Source: a virus
Taxonomy: Duplodnaviria > Heunggongvirae > Uroviricota > Caudoviricetes
Strand: one strand, 5' to 3'
Length of the DNA: 40,504 nucleotides
IMG/VR virus record: IMGVR_UViG_2526164632_000038
Shown here in pieces: positions 3,189-34,630 of the stretch. Under the pieces are notes generated by a model. The model had not been told where the DNA came from. It did no database searches and worked only from the letters and a program-made list of their open reading frames with translations. Position numbers and translations under genes: made by a program. The number at the start of each line of letters is the position of its first letter. The first letter of the stretch is position 1.

Positions 3189-3554
3189 ATGATTGATGTC
3201 TTAGGGCCGGAGAAACGCAGACGGCGTACCACACAGGAAAAGATCGCAATTGTTCAGCAGAGCTTTGAACCGGGGATGACGGTCTCTCTCGTTGCCCGGC
3301 AACATGGTGTAGCAGCCAGCCAGTTATTTCTCTGGCGTAAGCAATACCAGGAAGGAAGTCTTACCGCTGTCGCCGCCGGAGAACAGGTTGTTCCTGCCTC
3401 TGAACTTGTTGCCGCCATGAAGCAGATTAAAGAACTCCAGCGCCTGCTCGGCAAGAAAACGATGGAAAATGAACTCCTCAAAGAAGCCGTTGAATATGGA
3501 CGGGCAAAAAAGTGGATAGCGCACGCGCCCTTATTGCCCGGGGATGGGGAGTAA
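3189..3554 (+). CDS. insC: IS2 transposase OrfA
   Basis: [41 protein letters not shown]... HTH protein; A6G slippery heptamer at 3506..3512 for -1 frameshift into orfB. Confidence 0.85.
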
Positions 3555-4417
3555 GCTTAGTCAGCCGTTGTCTCCGGGTGTCGCGTGCGCAGTTGCACGT
3601 CATTCTCAGACGAACCGATGACTGGATGGATAGCCGCCGCAGTCGTCACACTGATGATACGGATGTGCTTCTCCGTATACACCATGTTATCGGAGAGCTG
3701 CCCACGTATGGTTATCGTCGGGTATGGGCGCTGCTTCGCAGACAGGCAGAACTTGATGGTATGCCTGCGATCAATGCCAAACGTGTTTACCGGATCATGC
3801 GCCAGAATGCGCTGTTGCTTGAGCGAAAACCTGCTGTACCGCCATCGAAACGGGCACATACAGGCAGAGTGGCCGTGAAAGAAAGCAATCAGCGATGGTG
3901 CTCTGACGGGTTCGAGTTCTGCTGTGATAACGGAGAGAGACTGCGTGTCACGTTCGCGCTGGACTGCTGTGATCGTGAGGCACTGCACTGGGCGGTGACT
4001 ACCGGCGGCTTCAACAGTGAAACAGTACAGGACGTCATGCTGGGAGCGGTGGAACGCCGCTTCGGCAACGATCTTCCGTCGTCTCCAGTGGAGTGGCTGA
4101 CGGATAATGGTTCATGCTACCGGGCTAATGAAACACGCCAGTTCGCCCGGATGTTGGGACTTGAACCGAAGAACACGGCGGTGCGGAGTCCGGAGAGTAA
4201 CGGAATAGCAGAGAGCTTCGTGAAAACGATAAAGCGTGACTACATCAGTATCATGCCCAAACCAGACGGGTTAACGGCAGCAAAGAACCTTGCAGAGGCG
4301 TTCGAGCATTATAACGAATGGCATCCGCATAGTGCGCTGGGTTATCGCTCGCCACGGGAATATCTGCGGCAGCGGGCTTGTAATGGGTTAAGTGATAACA
4401 GATGTCTGGAAATATAG
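3512..4417 (+). CDS. insD: IS2 transposase OrfB (DDE catalytic domain)
   Basis: 301-aa ORF overlapping orfA in the -1 frame; IS3-family integrase-like core. Confidence 0.85.
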
Positions 4418-24431: not shown

Positions 24432-24854
24432 TTATGCCGCCGAGCAGCTCCTACGCAAAGTCCTGATAGCCTGAGGCTTTGACTGAACCGACTGATCCAT
24501 TTCGAGCACCACATCCAGCATGGCTAAGCAACCGTCAATAAATCCCTCTGCCGCCTGAAGCCTCTTCAGAACGTGGGTGTGAGATACGCCGAGCTTCTCA
24601 CCCATCGCCCGCACGGGCATGGCCTGGACGTAATGCCACTCAAGGAGCGTGCACAGATACGGATCTTTTTTCTTCAGGCAGCTCATAGCGGAGTTGATGA
24701 TAAGACCGTCATTGTCACTGCATTTCAGCCTTCCAGACTGCGTCGCGGGTAGCAGATTCTTAAACCCGGCTGCAACAGGAGGAAAGTAGACGCTACCACC
24801 TTCACTCGCTGCCCAGCCACCCCAGCGCTCTAAAACCTGTTGAATATTACGCAT
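24432..24854 (-). CDS. Late-gene antiterminator, Q-like
   Basis: 140-aa ORF between the primase-helicase gene and the lysis cassette, upstream of the terminator-containing leader; family resemblance from memory. Confidence 0.55.
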   Translation of the reverse strand: MRNIQQVLERWGGWAASEGGSVYFPPVAAGFKNLLPATQSGRLKCSDNDGLIINSAMSCLKKKDPYLCTLLEWHYVQAMPVRAMGEKLGVSHTHVLKRLQAAEGFIDGCLAMLDVVLEMDQSVQSKPQAIRTLRRSCSAA

Positions 24855-24983
24855 AGCTCTGACCTCTACGTTTTGCTACGAAAAAATTTTCTGAGAACCA
24901 CGTCTGTTTATCCGTGGGTGTGGATAACGCAGTTCCGATTCGCTTATTACACGCTGTTATGTGCAAAAAATTCCTTGTTCGGC

Positions 24984-25155
24984 CTGTACCAATCTGTACC
25001 CACCTGTACCAGCTCTTTTCAAACCTTTTCCCCAAGCGACTTATATATATATATGGGGTTCTTAGTAATTAGGTTGGTACAGATGGTACAGTTGGTACTG
25101 ACCTTTAAATTCAATTAGTTAAAATGTACCAACCTCTATTTTGAGGCTGGTACAG
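24984..25155. repeat. Iteron-like repeat array flanking an AT-rich tract (candidate origin or regulatory array)
   Basis: CTGTACC at 24984, 24994 and 25004 (10-bp phasing); (TA)n tract at 25041..25054; inverse GGTACAG/GGTACTG at 25076, 25085, 25094; further copies at 25125..25130 and 25149..25155. Confidence 0.5.
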
Positions 25156-27328
25156 GTTGGGACACCGCCTCAAAAATTCGAGTCATTTTCCCCCCAATTC
25201 GCCTTTGGGCACGCTTATACCCGCAATTTTGCAAAACATTACTAATTCGCATTTCTTCGCGTTTTCCGATGCGGTCAGGATTTAGCCCAATCGCATCACG
25301 CAAAACATCACTTGCGCGTAAAAATTCGCAATTTCGCGGAAGTTCATTAGTCATCAGGTCTGGCGTGTCGAGCCATTTCTCTACCGTTTCAAGCCAAGCA
25401 TCCTTGATGGTGTACTGTTCATGGACACTCGCTGCCAGTTGTTCAGCCTCACGGAACTGGATACCCCCCAGACGCTGAAACACCTCACGAGCCTCAGCCC
25501 AAAGTAAAAGGAGATCTCTTTTTATCGCTTTCACGTCGACTTTCGACACTTCCACGGGGAGCCAGCGACGGTTACCAGTCTTGTCCGCAAGGAATTCGTC
25601 CTCATTGGTGGTACCAACGAACACCAGGCGACGAGGAAACTGGGTGGCGAACTCCCGGTATTTCGGGATCCAGTTTTCGTGAGTACGCGTCACAAACGCT
25701 TTGATTGACTCCAGCTCTTTGGTATTAAGTCCGCGCAGTTCACCAATCTCTGCCACCAGCCGACCACGCATTTTTCGAGCGAGATCATCGTCTTTTTCGG
25801 CAAAAGAGATTTCAGTAAAAAACGCAGGATCAGGGCTCAGTGCCTCCACTCCGGAAGACTTACCGCAGCCCTGCGGACCAACGAGGATCGGCACCATATC
25901 CGCTTTGATGCCTGGCTCCAGTACTCGCCCCGCCAACGCGGTCCACATGTACATAGACACCGCACGGGTATAAGGCGTGTCGGCTGTACCGAAGTGCGTA
26001 TGGTAGAAACATTCGATGCGCGGCACGCCATCCCACTCCAGCCCGTTCAGCCAGGTAATCGCTGAATCGAATGGTTGTTCATCGGCTGCAAGTAACACCA
26101 CATCGCGAATAAGTTCACGACCAACAGGTTTAAATCCCCGCTTTTCCATCGTGATGCGCAGGCGCGCATAATCCGCATCGGTGAATGCTCGCCATTGTCC
26201 GGATCCTGCAGAGGCAAACATGATTTCGTCGCGGAACTGGTCAAAGCGAATATCGATGTCCACAAAATCAGGGCGTACTACTGCTTTGGCTGCGTTGCTG
26301 ATGGTTGCCTCGATACGCCCCCATTTATCACGCTCGAAAGCAGGCAGCGGTAAAGGTTCCGCCACTTCGGTGCTGGTCAGATCTTCGAAATCGTCGTTGC
26401 GGATCCCGATGGCATTAAGGAAATCTCCGTCATCACGATGCGCACAACTGGCATGCAGGCATTTAAAATGCCCCTGCTCAAAGCCCGCGGTTCCCGCAGG
26501 AAAATAAGCTGTGCTTGTTGGATCGCCCCCGCTACTGTGGCCGTCTTCAAACGGACAGCGGATATATCGTTCACCATTTGCGCCATCCAGCAGCGTCCAG
26601 CCATTGGCATCAAGATATTCAGCTGTATCATCCGTCGCGCCGGGCGTGAATGCTGATCGGTCGCGCATCTTCGTGTTGCCCGCTTCGGTGGTTACCGACA
26701 CAGGGAGTTGTTCAGCCAGGCGCTGCCACAGCGTTTCAAGCTGCTCACCAGTAATAGCCGGAGGTTCATCCGGCAAACCACCGTCCCATTCAATACGCGC
26801 GCCGCTGCTGTGCGTACCACAGGCAACGAACTGCTGCCCGTTCGCCAGCAACTCGATAATGCCCATATCCCCCGCCAGGCGATGGATACGCTTACAGAAA
26901 TCACCATCAACGGCCAGCAGATACAGACACTTATTACTGTTTGCTCGCCAGCGTCGCGGCGGCAACTCCCCCAGAAGTTGCACAAGCGTTTTGCGAATAT
27001 CTGCCTGAATGTCTTCATCTTCGCTATCGCAGTCCAGCGCCAGCCAGCCATGGCCTGTACGCACGCAGATGCCATAATCCGGTTCATTCGACCAGCGGGC
27101 AAAATCATGCTCAGTAACAACATACCCGGTCCATTGAGCAATACCGGTGACCTGGCGGTCCCGGTTATAGCGACTTGGCGTCTTACCCAGCGCTTTCAGT
27201 TTACTATCAGGGGATATGGTCGCACCGGGGTTACATACAACTGGGAGAAGATGATCAGTTCTCCCCAATACCAGGTCGAAATGAAACCACTCATCAGGCG
27301 TAGCTCCCCATGGTTTGCTATCGGACAT
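25136..27328 (-). CDS. Primase-helicase (primase-polymerase-like N-terminus with P-loop NTPase C-terminus)
   Basis: 730-aa ORF coupled to cro; Cys/His cluster (CPFEDGH..HFKCLHASCAH); Walker A GPQGCGKS; Walker B-like LVFVGTTNE. Confidence 0.7.
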   Translation of the reverse strand: MSDSKPWGATPDEWFHFDLVLGRTDHLLPVVCNPGATISPDSKLKALGKTPSRYNRDRQVTGIAQWTGYVVTEHDFARWSNEPDYGICVRTGHGWLALDCDSEDEDIQADIRKTLVQLLGELPPRRWRANSNKCLYLLAVDGDFCKRIHRLAGDMGIIELLANGQQFVACGTHSSGARIEWDGGLPDEPPAITGEQLETLWQRLAEQLPVSVTTEAGNTKMRDRSAFTPGATDDTAEYLDANGWTLLDGANGERYIRCPFEDGHSSGGDPTSTAYFPAGTAGFEQGHFKCLHASCAHRDDGDFLNAIGIRNDDFEDLTSTEVAEPLPLPAFERDKWGRIEATISNAAKAVVRPDFVDIDIRFDQFRDEIMFASAGSGQWRAFTDADYARLRITMEKRGFKPVGRELIRDVVLLAADEQPFDSAITWLNGLEWDGVPRIECFYHTHFGTADTPYTRAVSMYMWTALAGRVLEPGIKADMVPILVGPQGCGKSSGVEALSPDPAFFTEISFAEKDDDLARKMRGRLVAEIGELRGLNTKELESIKAFVTRTHENWIPKYREFATQFPRRLVFVGTTNEDEFLADKTGNRRWLPVEVSKVDVKAIKRDLLLLWAEAREVFQRLGGIQFREAEQLAASVHEQYTIKDAWLETVEKWLDTPDLMTNELPRNCEFLRASDVLRDAIGLNPDRIGKREEMRISNVLQNCGYKRAQRRIGGKMTRIFEAVSQPVPASK

Positions 27329-27331
27329 GGG

Positions 27332-27544
27332 TTAAGCCTTTTTATCGTTTTGTGAGCCATACAACAGCCAATTAGGGTCGCAATCCAATGCTATAGACAT
27401 TTCAAGAAGATAACGTGGCCGAGCAATAACACCACTTTCAATTCTGTTTATTGCCTGCTGGCTCACTCCTGTGAGCTCAGCCAACGTAACTTGCGTCATT
27501 TTGAGTTCTTTACGTCGTTCTTTTACTCGGGTCGCTAAGGTCAT
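27332..27544 (-). CDS. Cro-like HTH repressor
   Basis: ATG at 27544 with GAGGTGA upstream; 70 aa; HTH QVTLAELTGVSQQAINRIESG; divergent from the cI-like gene. Confidence 0.7.
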   Translation of the reverse strand: MTLATRVKERRKELKMTQVTLAELTGVSQQAINRIESGVIARPRYLLEMSIALDCDPNWLLYGSQNDKKA

Positions 27545-27583
27545 TGCTTTCACCTCATACAATTTTAGTGGTATTTAGCAACA

Positions 27584-27618
27584 ACAAATGAGGTTTGTCA
27601 AATACAACAAAAATTGTT
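27584..27618. promoter_or_regulatory. Operator-like dyads in the cro/cI divergent promoter region
   Basis: ACAAA-N5-TTTGT at 27584..27598, TTGT-N5-ACAA at 27595..27607, AACAA-N3-TTGTT at 27606..27618, within the 120-bp gap between the two starts. Confidence 0.4.
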
Positions 27619-27664
27619 TTTAATGTGGGTATACACATTAATACAACCCAGAAGGACTAATCCC

Positions 27665-28288
27665 ATGTCTCTCGCAGCCCGTTTTAAAGCACGTCGTTTG
27701 GAATTAGGAATGACTCAAGTGGAAGTAGCGAATTCTGCAGGGGTTAGCCAACAATCCATAGAATCCATCGAAAGTGGACGAACCAGAAAGCCACGCAATC
27801 TTCTGGATCTGGCTAAGGCCTTGAAATGTAGCCCAGACTGGCTACTGAACGGTAAAAATATTATGCCTCTCGCGGAGATAAGTACCAGACGCATACCTAT
27901 ATTAAGTTACGTTCAGGCAGGAGAGCTTACAGAAGCAAGAGACATAACAGATCTGACAGGGGAATTTGAATATATTTTGGCAGACTCTGACATTCCAGAA
28001 ACATGCTTCGCATTACGTATTGATGGCGACAGCATGCAACCAGAGTTTAAAGAAGGAGACATTGTTATCATCGATCCTGATCTATGTCCTGCACCAGGGG
28101 AGTTTGTTGTCGCCAAAAACGACGGTCACGAAGCTACATTTAAAAAATACCGTCCATTAGGAATCGGCATCGACGACTTTGAATTAATCCCCCTAAATCC
28201 TGATTACCCTATTTTTCGTAGTGCAGATATGAACTTACAGATCATAGGTGTAATGATCGAACACCGTATTTACCGCCGTAAACGTTAG
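27665..28288 (+). CDS. CI-like repressor (HTH plus S24 LexA-type autopeptidase domain)
   Basis: ATG at 27665 with AGAAGGA upstream; HTH QVEVANSAGVSQQSIESIESG; C-terminal GDSMQP serine motif. Confidence 0.8.
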   Translation: MSLAARFKARRLELGMTQVEVANSAGVSQQSIESIESGRTRKPRNLLDLAKALKCSPDWLLNGKNIMPLAEISTRRIPILSYVQAGELTEARDITDLTGEFEYILADSDIPETCFALRIDGDSMQPEFKEGDIVIIDPDLCPAPGEFVVAKNDGHEATFKKYRPLGIGIDDFELIPLNPDYPIFRSADMNLQIIGVMIEHRIYRRKR

Positions 28289-29972: not shown

Positions 29973-31274
29973 ATGCCAGACGTTCATGCACAACTTTCTC
30001 CATCATCAGCGCATCGATGGATGCGCTGCCCAGGAAGTCTGGCGCTGGAGGCCACACAACCGGATAAAGAAACAACTTTTGCAATCGAGGGCACTGCAGC
30101 GCACGCGCTTGCTGAAAAAGTTCTACGAAACAGGCAAAGCCACCCGGAACACTACGCCGGATGCAATGTTTCTATGTTTCTCGGCTCATACCCCCTTCGC
30201 GAAAATCCTGATGATACATCTGGCCCACAGGTGGATGATGAAATGGTCGAAGCCGTTGGCCGGTATGTTGATACGGTCTGGACTCTTGCACAGAATAATG
30301 AACTATTGGTTGAACAACGTGTTGATTTCTCACATATAACGGGGGTGGAAGAATCTTTCGGAACTGCCGACGGCATAATCATCGCTGGTAACGAATTACA
30401 AATCCACGACCTGAAATATGGCAAAGGCGTCCGCATTGATGCAGAACAAAATGAGCAACTACAACTGTATGCTCTGGGTGCGCTCGAACAATTCAGCATG
30501 CTGTATGACTTTGAGACTGTAAGATTATTTATTCACCAGCCAAGGCTCAACCACGTTTCAGAATGGTCGTTAACCGTACAGGAACTTCAGTCTTTCGGTG
30601 AACGGGCACAGGAGGCCGCAACCAGTGCGATCCTTGTTCTCAATATTGCTGAATGCGAAGGCATTGAGACACTACCGCTGGAAAACTTCATACCTGGAGA
30701 AAAACAGTGCCGCTTCTGTAAAGCAAAAGCTATTTGCACTGCCCAGAAAATGCAGCATTTACAAACAGCGGCCAGCGATTTTGAAGATCTGACAAAGCCT
30801 GTCAGCGAAATAATCACCAATGCCAGCGCACGTGTACCTCTGTTAACCATTGAGCAGCTTGCGGAGATCTATAGCCAGGCCGACTTTATTGAATCCTGGC
30901 TAAAGGCAGTACGGGACCGGGTTCACAATGAACTCAATGCCGGACATCCGGTACCGGGGTTTAAACTGGTAACAGGAAAACAAGGTAACCGGGCCTGGAG
31001 TGATGAAGAGGCAGCTCGCGCACTTCTGAAGGACCAGTTCAGGTACAAAACTGAAGAAGTATTCGACTTTAAACTTATTAGTCCCACAAAAGCCGAAAAA
31101 CTTATCAAAAAGGCCAGTCCACGCCGTTGGTCAAAAGTCGAGGCACTGATAACACGAGCTGATGGTAAACCAACCGTCATTCCCGAGTCAGACCCACGCC
31201 CCGCACTCAATATCAACCCTGTAAATGATTTCGACGACGTATCCGACGATACGCTAACCGCAGACCTCATCTGA
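29973..31274 (+). CDS. PD-(D/E)xK nuclease with Cys cluster (Cas4-like; resembles DUF2800-type phage proteins)
   Basis: N-terminal RWMRCPGS Cys plus C-terminal [10 protein letters not shown] cluster; nuclease-like motif ...IHDLKYGKG. Confidence 0.6.
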
Positions 31275-32566: not shown

Positions 32567-34630
32567 ATGTCCAATATACTATGGGGCGACCTGGAAACCT
32601 ATTGCGAAATCCCTATTACGAACGGTACCCATGCGTATGCCGAAGGCGTTGAAGTGATGCTTTTCGCATGGGCTATCAACGACGGGCCAGTAAACGTGTG
32701 GGATATCACTGCCGGTGGTGGTATTCCACACGGCTTATACGAAGCAATCGCAGACCCTGAAACCCTGCTTTATTTCCATAACTCTCACTTCGACCGCACC
32801 GTTCTGCGTTATGCAATGCCGCGCCTGGCACCGCCAGTCGAACGTTGGCGCGACACAATGGTGCAGGCGCTGGCGCACGGTCTCCCGGGGTCTCTGGGGG
32901 AACTCTGCGAAGTACTAGGCGTCCCGCAAGACAAAGCGAAGGACAAAGAAGGTAAAGCGCTGATCCAGCTGTTCTGTAAGCCACGCCCGAAAAACAGCAA
33001 ACTGCGCCGGGCCACCAGCAAAACCCACCCGGAAGAATGGCGGCGCTTTGTTGCTTACGCCGGACTGGATATCGAGGCAATGCGCGAAGTCTATAAACGT
33101 CTGCCGAAGTGGAATTATCAGGGGACAGAACTGGCGCTCTGGCATCGTGATCAGCAGATCAATGACCGGGGCGTCTGCATGGACGTGGAACTCGCACGCG
33201 CTGCGATCGACGCGGTAGACCAGGAACAAAAGCGCCTGGCAAAGCGTACACAGGAAATGACTGATGGCGAAGTGCAGGCAGCCACACAACGAGACGCGTT
33301 GATTAAGCACATTGTTGAATCCTACGGTGTGGAGCTACCAGACATGCAACGCAGTACTCTGGAACGTCGTATTGCCGACCCCGATTTACCATCTGCCGTG
33401 AAAGAACTGCTGGCTATCCGCCTGCAGGCCAGTACTACCAGCACCAGTAAATACAAGGCACTGATGAAAGGCGTAAGCCACGACGGGCGCTTACGCGGTA
33501 CGCTACAGTTCTGCGGGGCGTCACGTACCGGTCGTTGGGCCGGACGGCTATTCCAGCCCCAGAACCTTCCCCGCCCTTCACTAAAACAGGAACAAATAGA
33601 CGAAGGCATCGAAGCACTGAAAGCCGGATGTGCAGACCTGCTGTTTGACAATATCATGGAACTAACCAGTTCAGCGTTACGTGGCTGCATTATCGCGCCA
33701 ACAGGCAAAAAGCTGGTGGTAAGTGACTTGTCGAACATTGAAGGCCGTATGCTGGCATGGCTGGCGGGAGAAGAATGGAAACTGAATGCATTCAGAGAGT
33801 ACGACGCCGGAACGGGTCCGGACTTATATAAACTGGCGTATGCAAAAGCTTTCGATATTGCACCAGATGATGTTGATAAACACATGCGTCAGATCGGTAA
33901 AGTCATGGAACTCGGTCTGGGTTATGGTGGTGGTGTGTCGGCCTTCATCACTTTTGCACTGGTTTACGATCTCGATCTCGACGAGCTGGCGAACGCCGCA
34001 CTACCAAACATTCCCCGCGATGTTATCCGCGAGGCGAAAAGCTGGTACGACGAATCGGTTAAACGCAAGTCAACCTACGGGCTTTCTGAACGGGTATTTA
34101 TCGCCTGCGACTCACTTAAACGTCTCTGGCGCCGGGCGCATCCCGCGACCTGTGATTTCTGGTACGAACTGGAGCGCACCGTCCGCACTGCAATCGCCAC
34201 ACCGCAAAAAACATTGTATTGCGGTTATCTTAAAATCCGCCGCGATGGCGCGTGGCTGCGCATACAGCTACCATCCGGACGCGCTGTATGCTACCCGTCT
34301 CCGGTTATCGAAAAAGGGAATATCACCTACATGGGGGTTAACTCTTATTCGCGTAAATGGCAACGACTCAAAACCTACGGCGGAAAGCTGGTGGAGAACA
34401 TCACCCAGGCGGCCGCCCGCGACATTCTGGCCGGAAACATGCCGCTTATCGAAGATGCCGGTTACAGCATTGTGCTGACGGTACACAACGAGGTGATCAC
34501 CGAAGCACCTGACACAGAAGATTTCAACGATAAAGCGCTTTCCGCGCTTCTCTCCACTGACCCCGAATGGGCGCCCGATATCCCACTGAACGCTGGCGGT
34601 TTTGAGGCGTACCACTACAAAAAAGATTGA
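32567..34630 (+). CDS. Family A DNA polymerase with 3'-5' exonuclease domain
   Basis: Exo motifs DLETY, HNSHFD, YAGLD; pol motif A DLSNIEGR; motif [15 protein letters not shown]; motif C position reads VHNEV. Confidence 0.8.

Follow-up and report, generated by a model that had tools for sequence, protein, structure and literature searches.

The DNA studied here is a stretch of 40,504 nucleotides from the IMG/VR record IMGVR_UViG_2526164632_000038, referred to below as the window, and it encodes a complete temperate myophage. The genes for TerL, the portal protein, the head protease, the tail sheath, the tape measure protein, and the baseplate hub were all recognized in it, and CI, Cro, Q, and a holin are encoded as well. 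The cI-like repressor gene (27614-28288, plus strand) is divergent from a gene for a cro-like HTH protein (27332-27562, minus strand). From the latter, the minus strand continues through the gene for a primase-helicase of 730 amino acids (25136-27328, with the stop codon at 25136-25138), a repeat array, and the gene for the Q antiterminator (24432-24854; Pfam Phage_antitermQ, E 5e-42) to the holin and the other lysis genes. The primase-helicase, which is the candidate initiator, is referred to as PriRep. The gap between its gene and that of Q is 281 bp, and Q is the downstream neighbour of the array, lying outside the origin proposed below. It should be noted that the opposite arm carries, on the plus strand, an exonuclease gene (phrog_69, 29973-31274) and a gene for a 687-aa DNA polymerase (phrog_17, 32567-34630).

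The prophage is present in many E. coli genomes; the region was matched in 105 of 5,426 complete genomes, and in 46 of these the match covers 80% or more of it. No tRNAs were found, and an Rfam search at a permissive threshold returned only a sub-threshold c4-a1b1 match inside Q (E 0.17). The GC skew was uninformative at the scale of the prophage window, giving no usable origin signal.

The domain analysis of PriRep assigned residues 427-639 to a VapE-type helicase domain (Pfam VapE-like_dom, E 2.3e-60) and residues ~77-188 to an AEP Prim-Pol domain (PF09250, E 3.7e-9), and the PHROGs label of the protein is DNA helicase/primase. In a phmmer search, the SaPI PriRep of the PDB entry 7pds_A was matched at E 7e-34 over residues 384-657. 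The last 90 residues had no family match in Pfam. In the AF2 models of residues 626-730 and of the full protein, the C-terminal fold is a winged helix spanning residues ~645-722, with helices at 672-680 and 689-701 and β-strands at 704-711 and 714-721; the model of residues 626-730 has moderate confidence (pLDDT 73), and the Foldseek matches of this domain are weak (E ≥ 0.02). According to the AF2 secondary structure, the β-hairpin wing (residues 704-721) is encoded at 25166-25219 on the minus strand. Its second strand contains MTRIF (residues 715-719; 25172-25186, minus strand), the candidate specificity determinant. The helix presumed to be responsible for recognition, REEMRISNVLQNC, hardly varies.

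An earlier note on this DNA had described the array as three direct CTGTACC copies at exact 10-bp spacing, a (TA)7 tract, and three inverse copies at 9-bp spacing, with additional copies nearby. The exact copies were located at 24984, 24994, and 25004 on the plus strand, the first three thus being spaced by exactly 10 and 10 bp as claimed, and at 25076, 25085, and 25149 on the minus strand. The 9-bp spacing of the inverse set was likewise found, with the correction that its third member is the one-mismatch copy GGTACTG (25094-25100), which was detected by a repeat finder, as were the two other degenerate copies given below, and keeps the spacing. The alternating tract at 25042-25054 is TATATATATATAT, that is, (TA)6T and not (TA)7. 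The copies nearby are three in number, TGTACC at 25125-25130, GGTACAG at 25149-25155, and the degenerate GGGACAC at 25159-25165, so that the full array spans 24984-25165 and comprises nine copies, three of them degenerate. The labels direct and inverse apply to the plus strand; as the flanking genes are on the minus strand, they are reversed in the gene orientation, which is used from here on. The repeated unit is longer than the 7-nt motif, amounting to ~9-10 bp with the consensus cTGTACCAaCc.

Read in the gene orientation, the array consists of two direct iterons and an inverted one over the stop codon, three direct iterons, an AT-rich core, and three inverted iterons. The first pair, box A (25146-25165, minus strand), is formed by GTGTCCCAACC and TGTACCAGCC, whose motifs GGTACAG (25149-25155) and GGGACAC (25159-25165) sit within the 3' end of the primase-helicase ORF, in its last 30 nt; cognate-type copies are present at the same position in the relatives. 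Box B (25071-25101, minus strand) contains CAGTACCAAC, TGTACCATC, and TGTACCAACC as three direct iterons at 9-bp spacing. The core that follows (25014-25070, 57 bp) is a presumed DNA-unwinding element. It contains the (TA)6T tract and two conserved blocks; one of these, CTAAGAACCCCATATATATATATAAGTCG (25037-25065, minus strand), is nearly invariant, being the same in 16 representatives of nine iteron classes, and the other is the motif AAAGGTT (25022-25028, minus strand). Box C (24984-25013, plus strand) holds the three CTGTACC at exact 10-bp spacing and is inverted relative to boxes A and B. The GC content is 33-35% over 25020-25159. At the outer edge of box C lies the motif AATTTTTTGCA (24962-24972, minus strand).

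The last ~9 codons of PriRep (..VSQPVPASK; 25139-25165, minus strand) are encoded by the iterons themselves. The tail of the protein changes with the iteron class, for example, to ..PLEPRGTT with GGAACC iterons, and in other classes the ORF ends before the first iteron. Residues 724-730 have a pLDDT below 50. As the ORF stops ahead of the first iteron in other classes, the iteron-encoded tail is probably dispensable.

On both strands of the 40.5-kb window, CTGTACC occurs 15 times, compared with 2.82 ± 1.64 copies expected from dinucleotide-preserving shuffles, in which the maximum was seven. Six of the exact CTGTACC/GGTACAG copies are packed into 172 bp. For a segment of this length, ~0.012 copies are expected, which corresponds to an enrichment of ~500-fold and, when computed from the shuffle mean, to a Poisson probability of ~4e-15 for six or more copies. 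No second cluster of CTGTACC is present in the window, as the copies beyond the array are isolated. These nine lone copies (at 553, 2058, 2795, 3834, 6635, 8271, 16675, 20746, and 25984) are scattered singly in coding sequences, and by themselves they exceed both the mean (2.8) and the maximum (7) of the shuffles.

The earlier note had proposed looking for the same array in related phages, and it was found there at the same position. A megablast search of the region against phage genomes matched Q and part of the primase gene but no sequence of the array. By sensitive blastn, the array was found among the phage genomes only in the APSE phages of Hamiltonella, where it lies between P3 (a P-loop ATPase) and Q; diverged E. 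coli prophages were recovered as well. When the window was aligned with three of these prophages, the flanks and the centre (…AACCCCATATATATATATAAGTCG…AAAGGTT…) were identical, and every iteron position differed in the same manner, being GTACC in the window, GGAACC in O103:H2 12009, and GTTACC in XH993 and A34.

The comparison was extended to 104 loci encoding relatives of the protein, from which the region from -45 nt to +330 nt relative to the stop codon was fetched, giving 81 non-redundant regions. The architecture was present at or just past the stop codon of the orthologous gene in ~100 loci, from E. coli, Trabulsiella, Pectobacterium, Xenorhabdus, Photorhabdus, Providencia, Arsenophonus, Gilliamella, and Burkholderiales (a MAG). 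The isolated phages with the array are APSE-1, APSE-3, Yersinia phage YeP4, and Caulobacter phage Jess A. In the 81 non-redundant regions, the typical orientation pattern was ++-+++---, with 9-bp spacing prevailing in the direct block corresponding to box B (155 cases versus 45) and 10-bp spacing in the inverted block corresponding to box C (65 versus 35). Of the core elements, (TA)n with n of at least 3 was present in 78 of the 81 regions, AAAGGTT in 72, and TATAAG in 69. The outer-edge motif AATTTTTTGCA was present in 43 of the 81, among them the Burkholderiales locus L012 and L062, and it lies ahead of differing downstream genes. This motif includes TTGCA, a -35-like hexamer, and it could be either an accessory site of the origin or a -35-like element.

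The 7-12 copies within a genome share one core sequence, which varies among the genomes. At least 12 iteron classes were distinguished, namely GTACC, GGAACC, GTTACC, GTAACC, GTATCC, GTCCC, TAGACAAC, TAGACCAC, GTAACAAC, AGCCAC, TCTACAC, and GTCACC. The spacer CTAAGAACCCCATATATATATATAAGTCG remains constant while the iterons change from genome to genome. Such concerted copies around a constant spacer are what would be expected if one sequence-specific protein, its specificity having diversified, read all the sites of a genome. Mixed arrays were also seen, in the region from -45 to +250 nt relative to the stop codon. In L056, L060, and L073, GTAACC stands beside GTATCC and the wing is GKVLKVW, and the array of L006 is heterogeneous, with GTAGCC, GAAGCC, and GTAACC. 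The mixed arrays mean that iteron specificity is not absolute; they may be intermediates of a specificity switch or may reflect relaxed recognition at one position.

The conserved layout also bears on the possibility that the repeats arose by chance or from base composition, or that they are a decaying remnant without function. The shortness of the core motif is the one point in favour of this. The enrichment of ~500-fold, the uniformity of the copies within each genome, and the conservation of the architecture across Gamma-, Alpha-, and Betaproteobacteria all stand against it, and we consider it extremely improbable.

In the deposited annotations that were examined, the region is either blank or covered by a doubtful ORF. 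The latter is the case in APSE-1 (NC_000935), where a 'P4 hypothetical protein' annotated at 3361-3582 covers the AT-rich core and the iterons; in APSE-3, the same ORF is annotated as a pseudogene. The iteron classes of these two phages differ (GTAACAACC in APSE-1 and GTACCAACC in APSE-3). The ORF of APSE-1 is probably not a real gene.

The protein that reads the iterons was sought by co-variation. For this, the AMI with the iteron class was measured for each neighbouring feature over 63 distinct feature combinations. The highest value, 0.67 against a permutation maximum of 0.12, was obtained for the wing segment, represented by the 19 residues after the conserved LQNCGY motif, and linkage contributes to this association, as only ~10-30 bp separate the wing codons from the nearest iterons and the iterons themselves encode the tail past residue 721. 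The value was 0.19 for the helicase core, 0.10 for Cro, 0.08 for both the downstream gene and the N-terminus of PriRep, and 0.06 for CI. The two halves of the array nearly always agree in iteron class across the conserved core. As this core is recombination-prone, the concerted change over ~180 bp around it points to function beyond linkage.

The comparison of the window with two of the loci, L032 and L037, allowed the features to be separated. Their iterons belong to the GGAACC class, and their Cro and CI proteins are 100% identical to those of the window. Before residue 712, their PriRep proteins differ from that of the window by 4-7 scattered substitutions (four in residues 1-711 of L032). 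Meanwhile, residues 715-730 are wholly replaced in both (MTRIF.. to KCKVW..; in L032, MTRIFEAVSQPVPASK to KCKVWEPLEPRGTT), and the iterons have switched from GTACC to GGAACC at all sites. In the sequences compared, it is thus only the C-terminal end of PriRep that changes in step with the iterons.

These comparisons decide against another reading of the array, in which the repeats are the operators of Cro or CI or the pac site of TerS. Certain operator arrays and pac sites likewise contain short repeated motifs in two opposed clusters, the pac site of P1, where hexamer repeats flank a central region, being one case. Moreover, in the four-genome comparison, Cro and CI differ whenever the iterons differ. 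The identity of both proteins in the window and in L032 and L037 breaks this parallel, in agreement with the low AMI of Cro and CI, and no iteron copy was found in the cI-cro intergenic region. As for the pac site, the window, O103 12009, and A34 represent three iteron classes and yet have the same TerS (100% identity), and within a single class A34 and XH993 have unrelated TerS proteins (21% identical). We therefore regard the operator and pac readings as highly improbable. Cro, CI, Q, and TerS were each ruled out as the binding protein, since each can stay 100% identical across iteron classes.

The wing of the PriRep winged helix, which tracks the iteron class, is the probable reader of the iterons. 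Where the aromatic residue of the wing is F or Y, the iterons end in AAC in nine of nine distinct pairs, and where it is W, they end in CAC in seven of nine, the exceptions being the GKVCRVW types of APSE and Arsenophonus; these are raw counts that ignore phylogeny. The invariant helix may recognize the constant part of the iteron, C-[A/C]-A-C, and the variable wing the 4-5 nt that differ between classes.

The earlier note gave as an alternative a binding array that controls Q expression. In a fuller form of this reading, the array, lying between the early operon and Q, chiefly controls Q and the late genes. Either a bound protein would block read-through from the early operon, or a hairpin at the stop codon would act as a terminator and delay Q. 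A promoter scan detected no promoter-like site on the gene strand and none ahead of Q, which fits such a role. So does the hairpin formed by the inverted iteron pair at 25125-25154 (minus strand), which holds the stop codon (25136-25138) in its loop and has an RNA folding energy of -23.5 kcal/mol (z -4.1). Its 12-bp stem followed by TTTT scores as terminator-like and is the only such site in the scan. All iteron classes retain the inverted pair, with the stem conserved only as an iteron pair; however, the GGAACC, TAGACAAC, and TAGACCAC classes lack the T-run, which speaks against the terminator as a conserved feature. In addition, the window and O103 12009 have the same Q (100% identity) in spite of their different iteron classes, the array is kept where the downstream gene encodes an unrelated 91-aa protein or where there are other neighbours, as in the Caulobacter and Yersinia phages, and the AMI between the iteron class and the downstream gene is as low as 0.08. 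The control of Q was consequently abandoned as the primary role, and we consider it very unlikely. In this lineage, the hairpin could still be a partial terminator or a secondary gate before Q.

The window contains one perfect DnaA box, TTATCCACA, at 24919-24927 on the minus strand, ~60 bp past box C and upstream of Q. One perfect 9-mer in a double-stranded search space of 81 kb is insignificant alone. The box was rejected as a component of the origin because the 16 non-redundant relatives (of 81) that contain it all have the E. coli-type Q module, so that it follows Q and not the array; it could be an accessory DnaA site or a chance occurrence.

According to yet another reading, what functions is a stem-loop or cruciform extruded from the DNA, on whose structure the replication protein assembles; pRN1 and Bordetella phage BIP-1 are the systems for which this was put forward. 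Pairing between boxes B and C would give a long, imperfect stem with a DNA folding energy of -23 kcal/mol (z -4.0), and the geometry matches that of BIP-1, in which a large stem-loop lies 3' of the gene for a Prim-Pol/SF3/winged-helix protein and the stop codon is in the loop of a small hairpin (PMC4234260). For ORF904 of pRN1, the element was interpreted as a stem-loop, with no specific binding (PMC4234260). If only the structure mattered, any complementary arms would do, yet the units of both arms and the copies of box A are one and the same repeat and change together. The arm spacings of 9 and 10 bp would also put bulges in the stem. We hold this reading to be very unlikely as an account of the element, although the stem-loop and iteron views are compatible in that extrusion could accompany iteron-directed melting.

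The array is very probably the prophage origin of vegetative replication (ori), of the SaPI/PICI type. We base this on the conservation of the array, the concerted change of its copies, the tracking of the iterons by the wing, and the homology of PriRep to the SaPI PriRep, for which an origin laid out in the same manner has been characterized experimentally. The earlier note had read the phased iterons and the AT-rich element beside the primase-helicase gene as an origin, and all of the computational tests that were run agree with it.

Binding, melting, helicase loading, priming, and bidirectionality would follow by homology with the known systems. The 730-aa protein would unite the initiator, helicase, and primase in one chain, with its C-terminal winged helix recognizing the 9-10 bp iteron cTGTACCAaCc. 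With the iterons 9-10 bp apart, the bound domains would all lie on the same face of the helix, and the opposed triplets of boxes B and C would position two opposed helicase assemblies so that they flank the AT-rich core. The core would then melt and the helicases would load themselves, with no need for a separate loader. The N-terminal Prim-Pol domain would make the first primers, which the phage DNA polymerase (32567-34630) or a host polymerase could extend, resulting in bidirectional replication. The trio of box A at the stop codon may be a further binding site, possibly for nucleation. In lambda, early transcription runs through the origin; likewise, early transcription from the cro promoter would pass through the origin proposed here.

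A wider reading that joins these elements is tentative, and we regard it as rather doubtful in its entirety. The origin and the last β-strand of the winged helix would constitute a compact, fast-diversifying lock-and-key module, in which about five residues (715-719) choose among 12 or more iteron 'alleles'. The 3' triplet of the iteron would go with the aromatic residue (AAC with F/Y and CAC with W), and the mixed GTAACC/GTATCC arrays would be intermediates. Co-resident prophages and satellites would thereby be kept replicatively orthogonal, and, since the iterons overlap the stop codon of the initiator gene and precede Q, late-gene expression would be coupled to the initiation of replication through the iteron hairpin or through occupancy by the initiator.

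In the literature, we found no prior description of the array for this group of Gram-negative temperate phages or for APSE. The analysis locates a probable origin, together with the likely DNA-recognition residues of its initiator, for widespread temperate phages that include prophages of E. coli, Salmonella, and Enterobacter as well as APSE and YeP4. Furthermore, the matched pairs of wing and iteron, at least 12 on a near-constant protein background, provide a data set for winged-helix specificity and for orthogonal self-loading replicons.

Among the known systems, the lambda-type origin has O iterons and an AT-rich region in or next to the initiator gene and a modular specificity among relatives, and it is served by O, the helicase loader P, and DnaB. 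The window resembles lambda in its gene order of cI, cro, replication gene, Q, and lysis genes. In contrast to lambda, it has no O or P domains, the initiator itself being helicase and primase, and no other gene stands between those for Cro, PriRep, and Q. Its iterons of 9-10 bp lie at and after the 3' end of the gene, whereas those of lambda are 19-bp inverted repeats in the middle of the gene. The role of the O-protein iterons is among the subjects covered in PMC7466680.

Satellite phage P4 offers a second comparison. It is known for TGTTCACC and for the type I iterons of ori and crr, and it needs both of these separated cis sites. The window has a single iteron cluster and thus differs from the ori-crr arrangement of P4. 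In the α protein of P4, one polypeptide unites a primase and an SF3 helicase with a winged helix at the C-terminus, by which short origin repeats are bound (PMC4234260). Its primase is of the Toprim/DnaG-like type (PMC4234260), in contrast to the AEP Prim-Pol domain (PF09250) of the window.

The Bordetella phages BIP-1 and BPP-1 and ORF904 of pRN1 share with the window a protein composed of Prim-Pol, SF3, and winged-helix domains, a required or putative cis element directly 3' of its gene, and a large inverted repeat. The Caulobacter Rauchvirus Jess A encodes a protein that is 45% identical and has the same iteron layout as the window. The arms of the window differ from the stem-loop reading of BIP-1 and pRN1 in that they consist of iterons that co-vary with the protein.

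The closest likeness is to the SaPI and PICI elements (SaPI1, SaPIbov1, and SaPI5 of S. aureus and EcCICFT073 of E. coli). The Rep proteins of SaPIs are self-loading helicases as well as initiators, and their C-terminal winged helix recognizes iterons of 5-6 nt (PMC9371898). In the SaPI origin, 6-12 iterons follow directly on the 3' side of rep; they surround an AT-rich centre, each side of which has two or more iterons, oriented oppositely to those of the other side (PMC9371898). The origins of Gram-negative PICIs share this layout, one pri-rep-ori fragment having been tested for plasmid maintenance (PMC6092414). As in the window, these elements encode a VapE/SF3-type helicase with a C-terminal winged helix and sometimes a fused primase, the origin follows the initiator ORF directly on its 3' side with opposed iteron sets around the AT-rich centre, and different elements have different iteron/Rep specificities. 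The sequence features of the SaPI/PICI type found in the window are thus VapE/SF3 homology, the predicted winged helix, the 3' position, and 6-12 opposed iterons. A Rep of this type would bind its own iterons alone and a rep-ori fragment would replicate by itself, to which the AMI of 0.67 and the natural swaps lend indirect support here.

There are also differences. The window iterons, at ~9-10 bp, are longer than the 5-6 nt of the SaPIs, three additional iterons lie around the stop codon, partly within the coding sequence, and the core is strongly conserved in sequence and not merely AT-rich. The window phage encodes its own DNA polymerase and exonuclease, whereas SaPIs and PICIs use the polymerases of the host. 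Above all, the element of the window is a complete temperate myophage and not a satellite. The layout was termed unique to PICIs (PMC6092414), and such an origin was predicted in a lytic Enterococcus phage in a 2026 paper (PMC13517437). Judging from the sequence comparisons, an origin type already known from staphylococcal pathogenicity islands is here very probably carried by a complete temperate phage. The PICI-type origin layout would therefore not be confined to satellites, which bears on its use as a hallmark of PICIs (PMC6092414).
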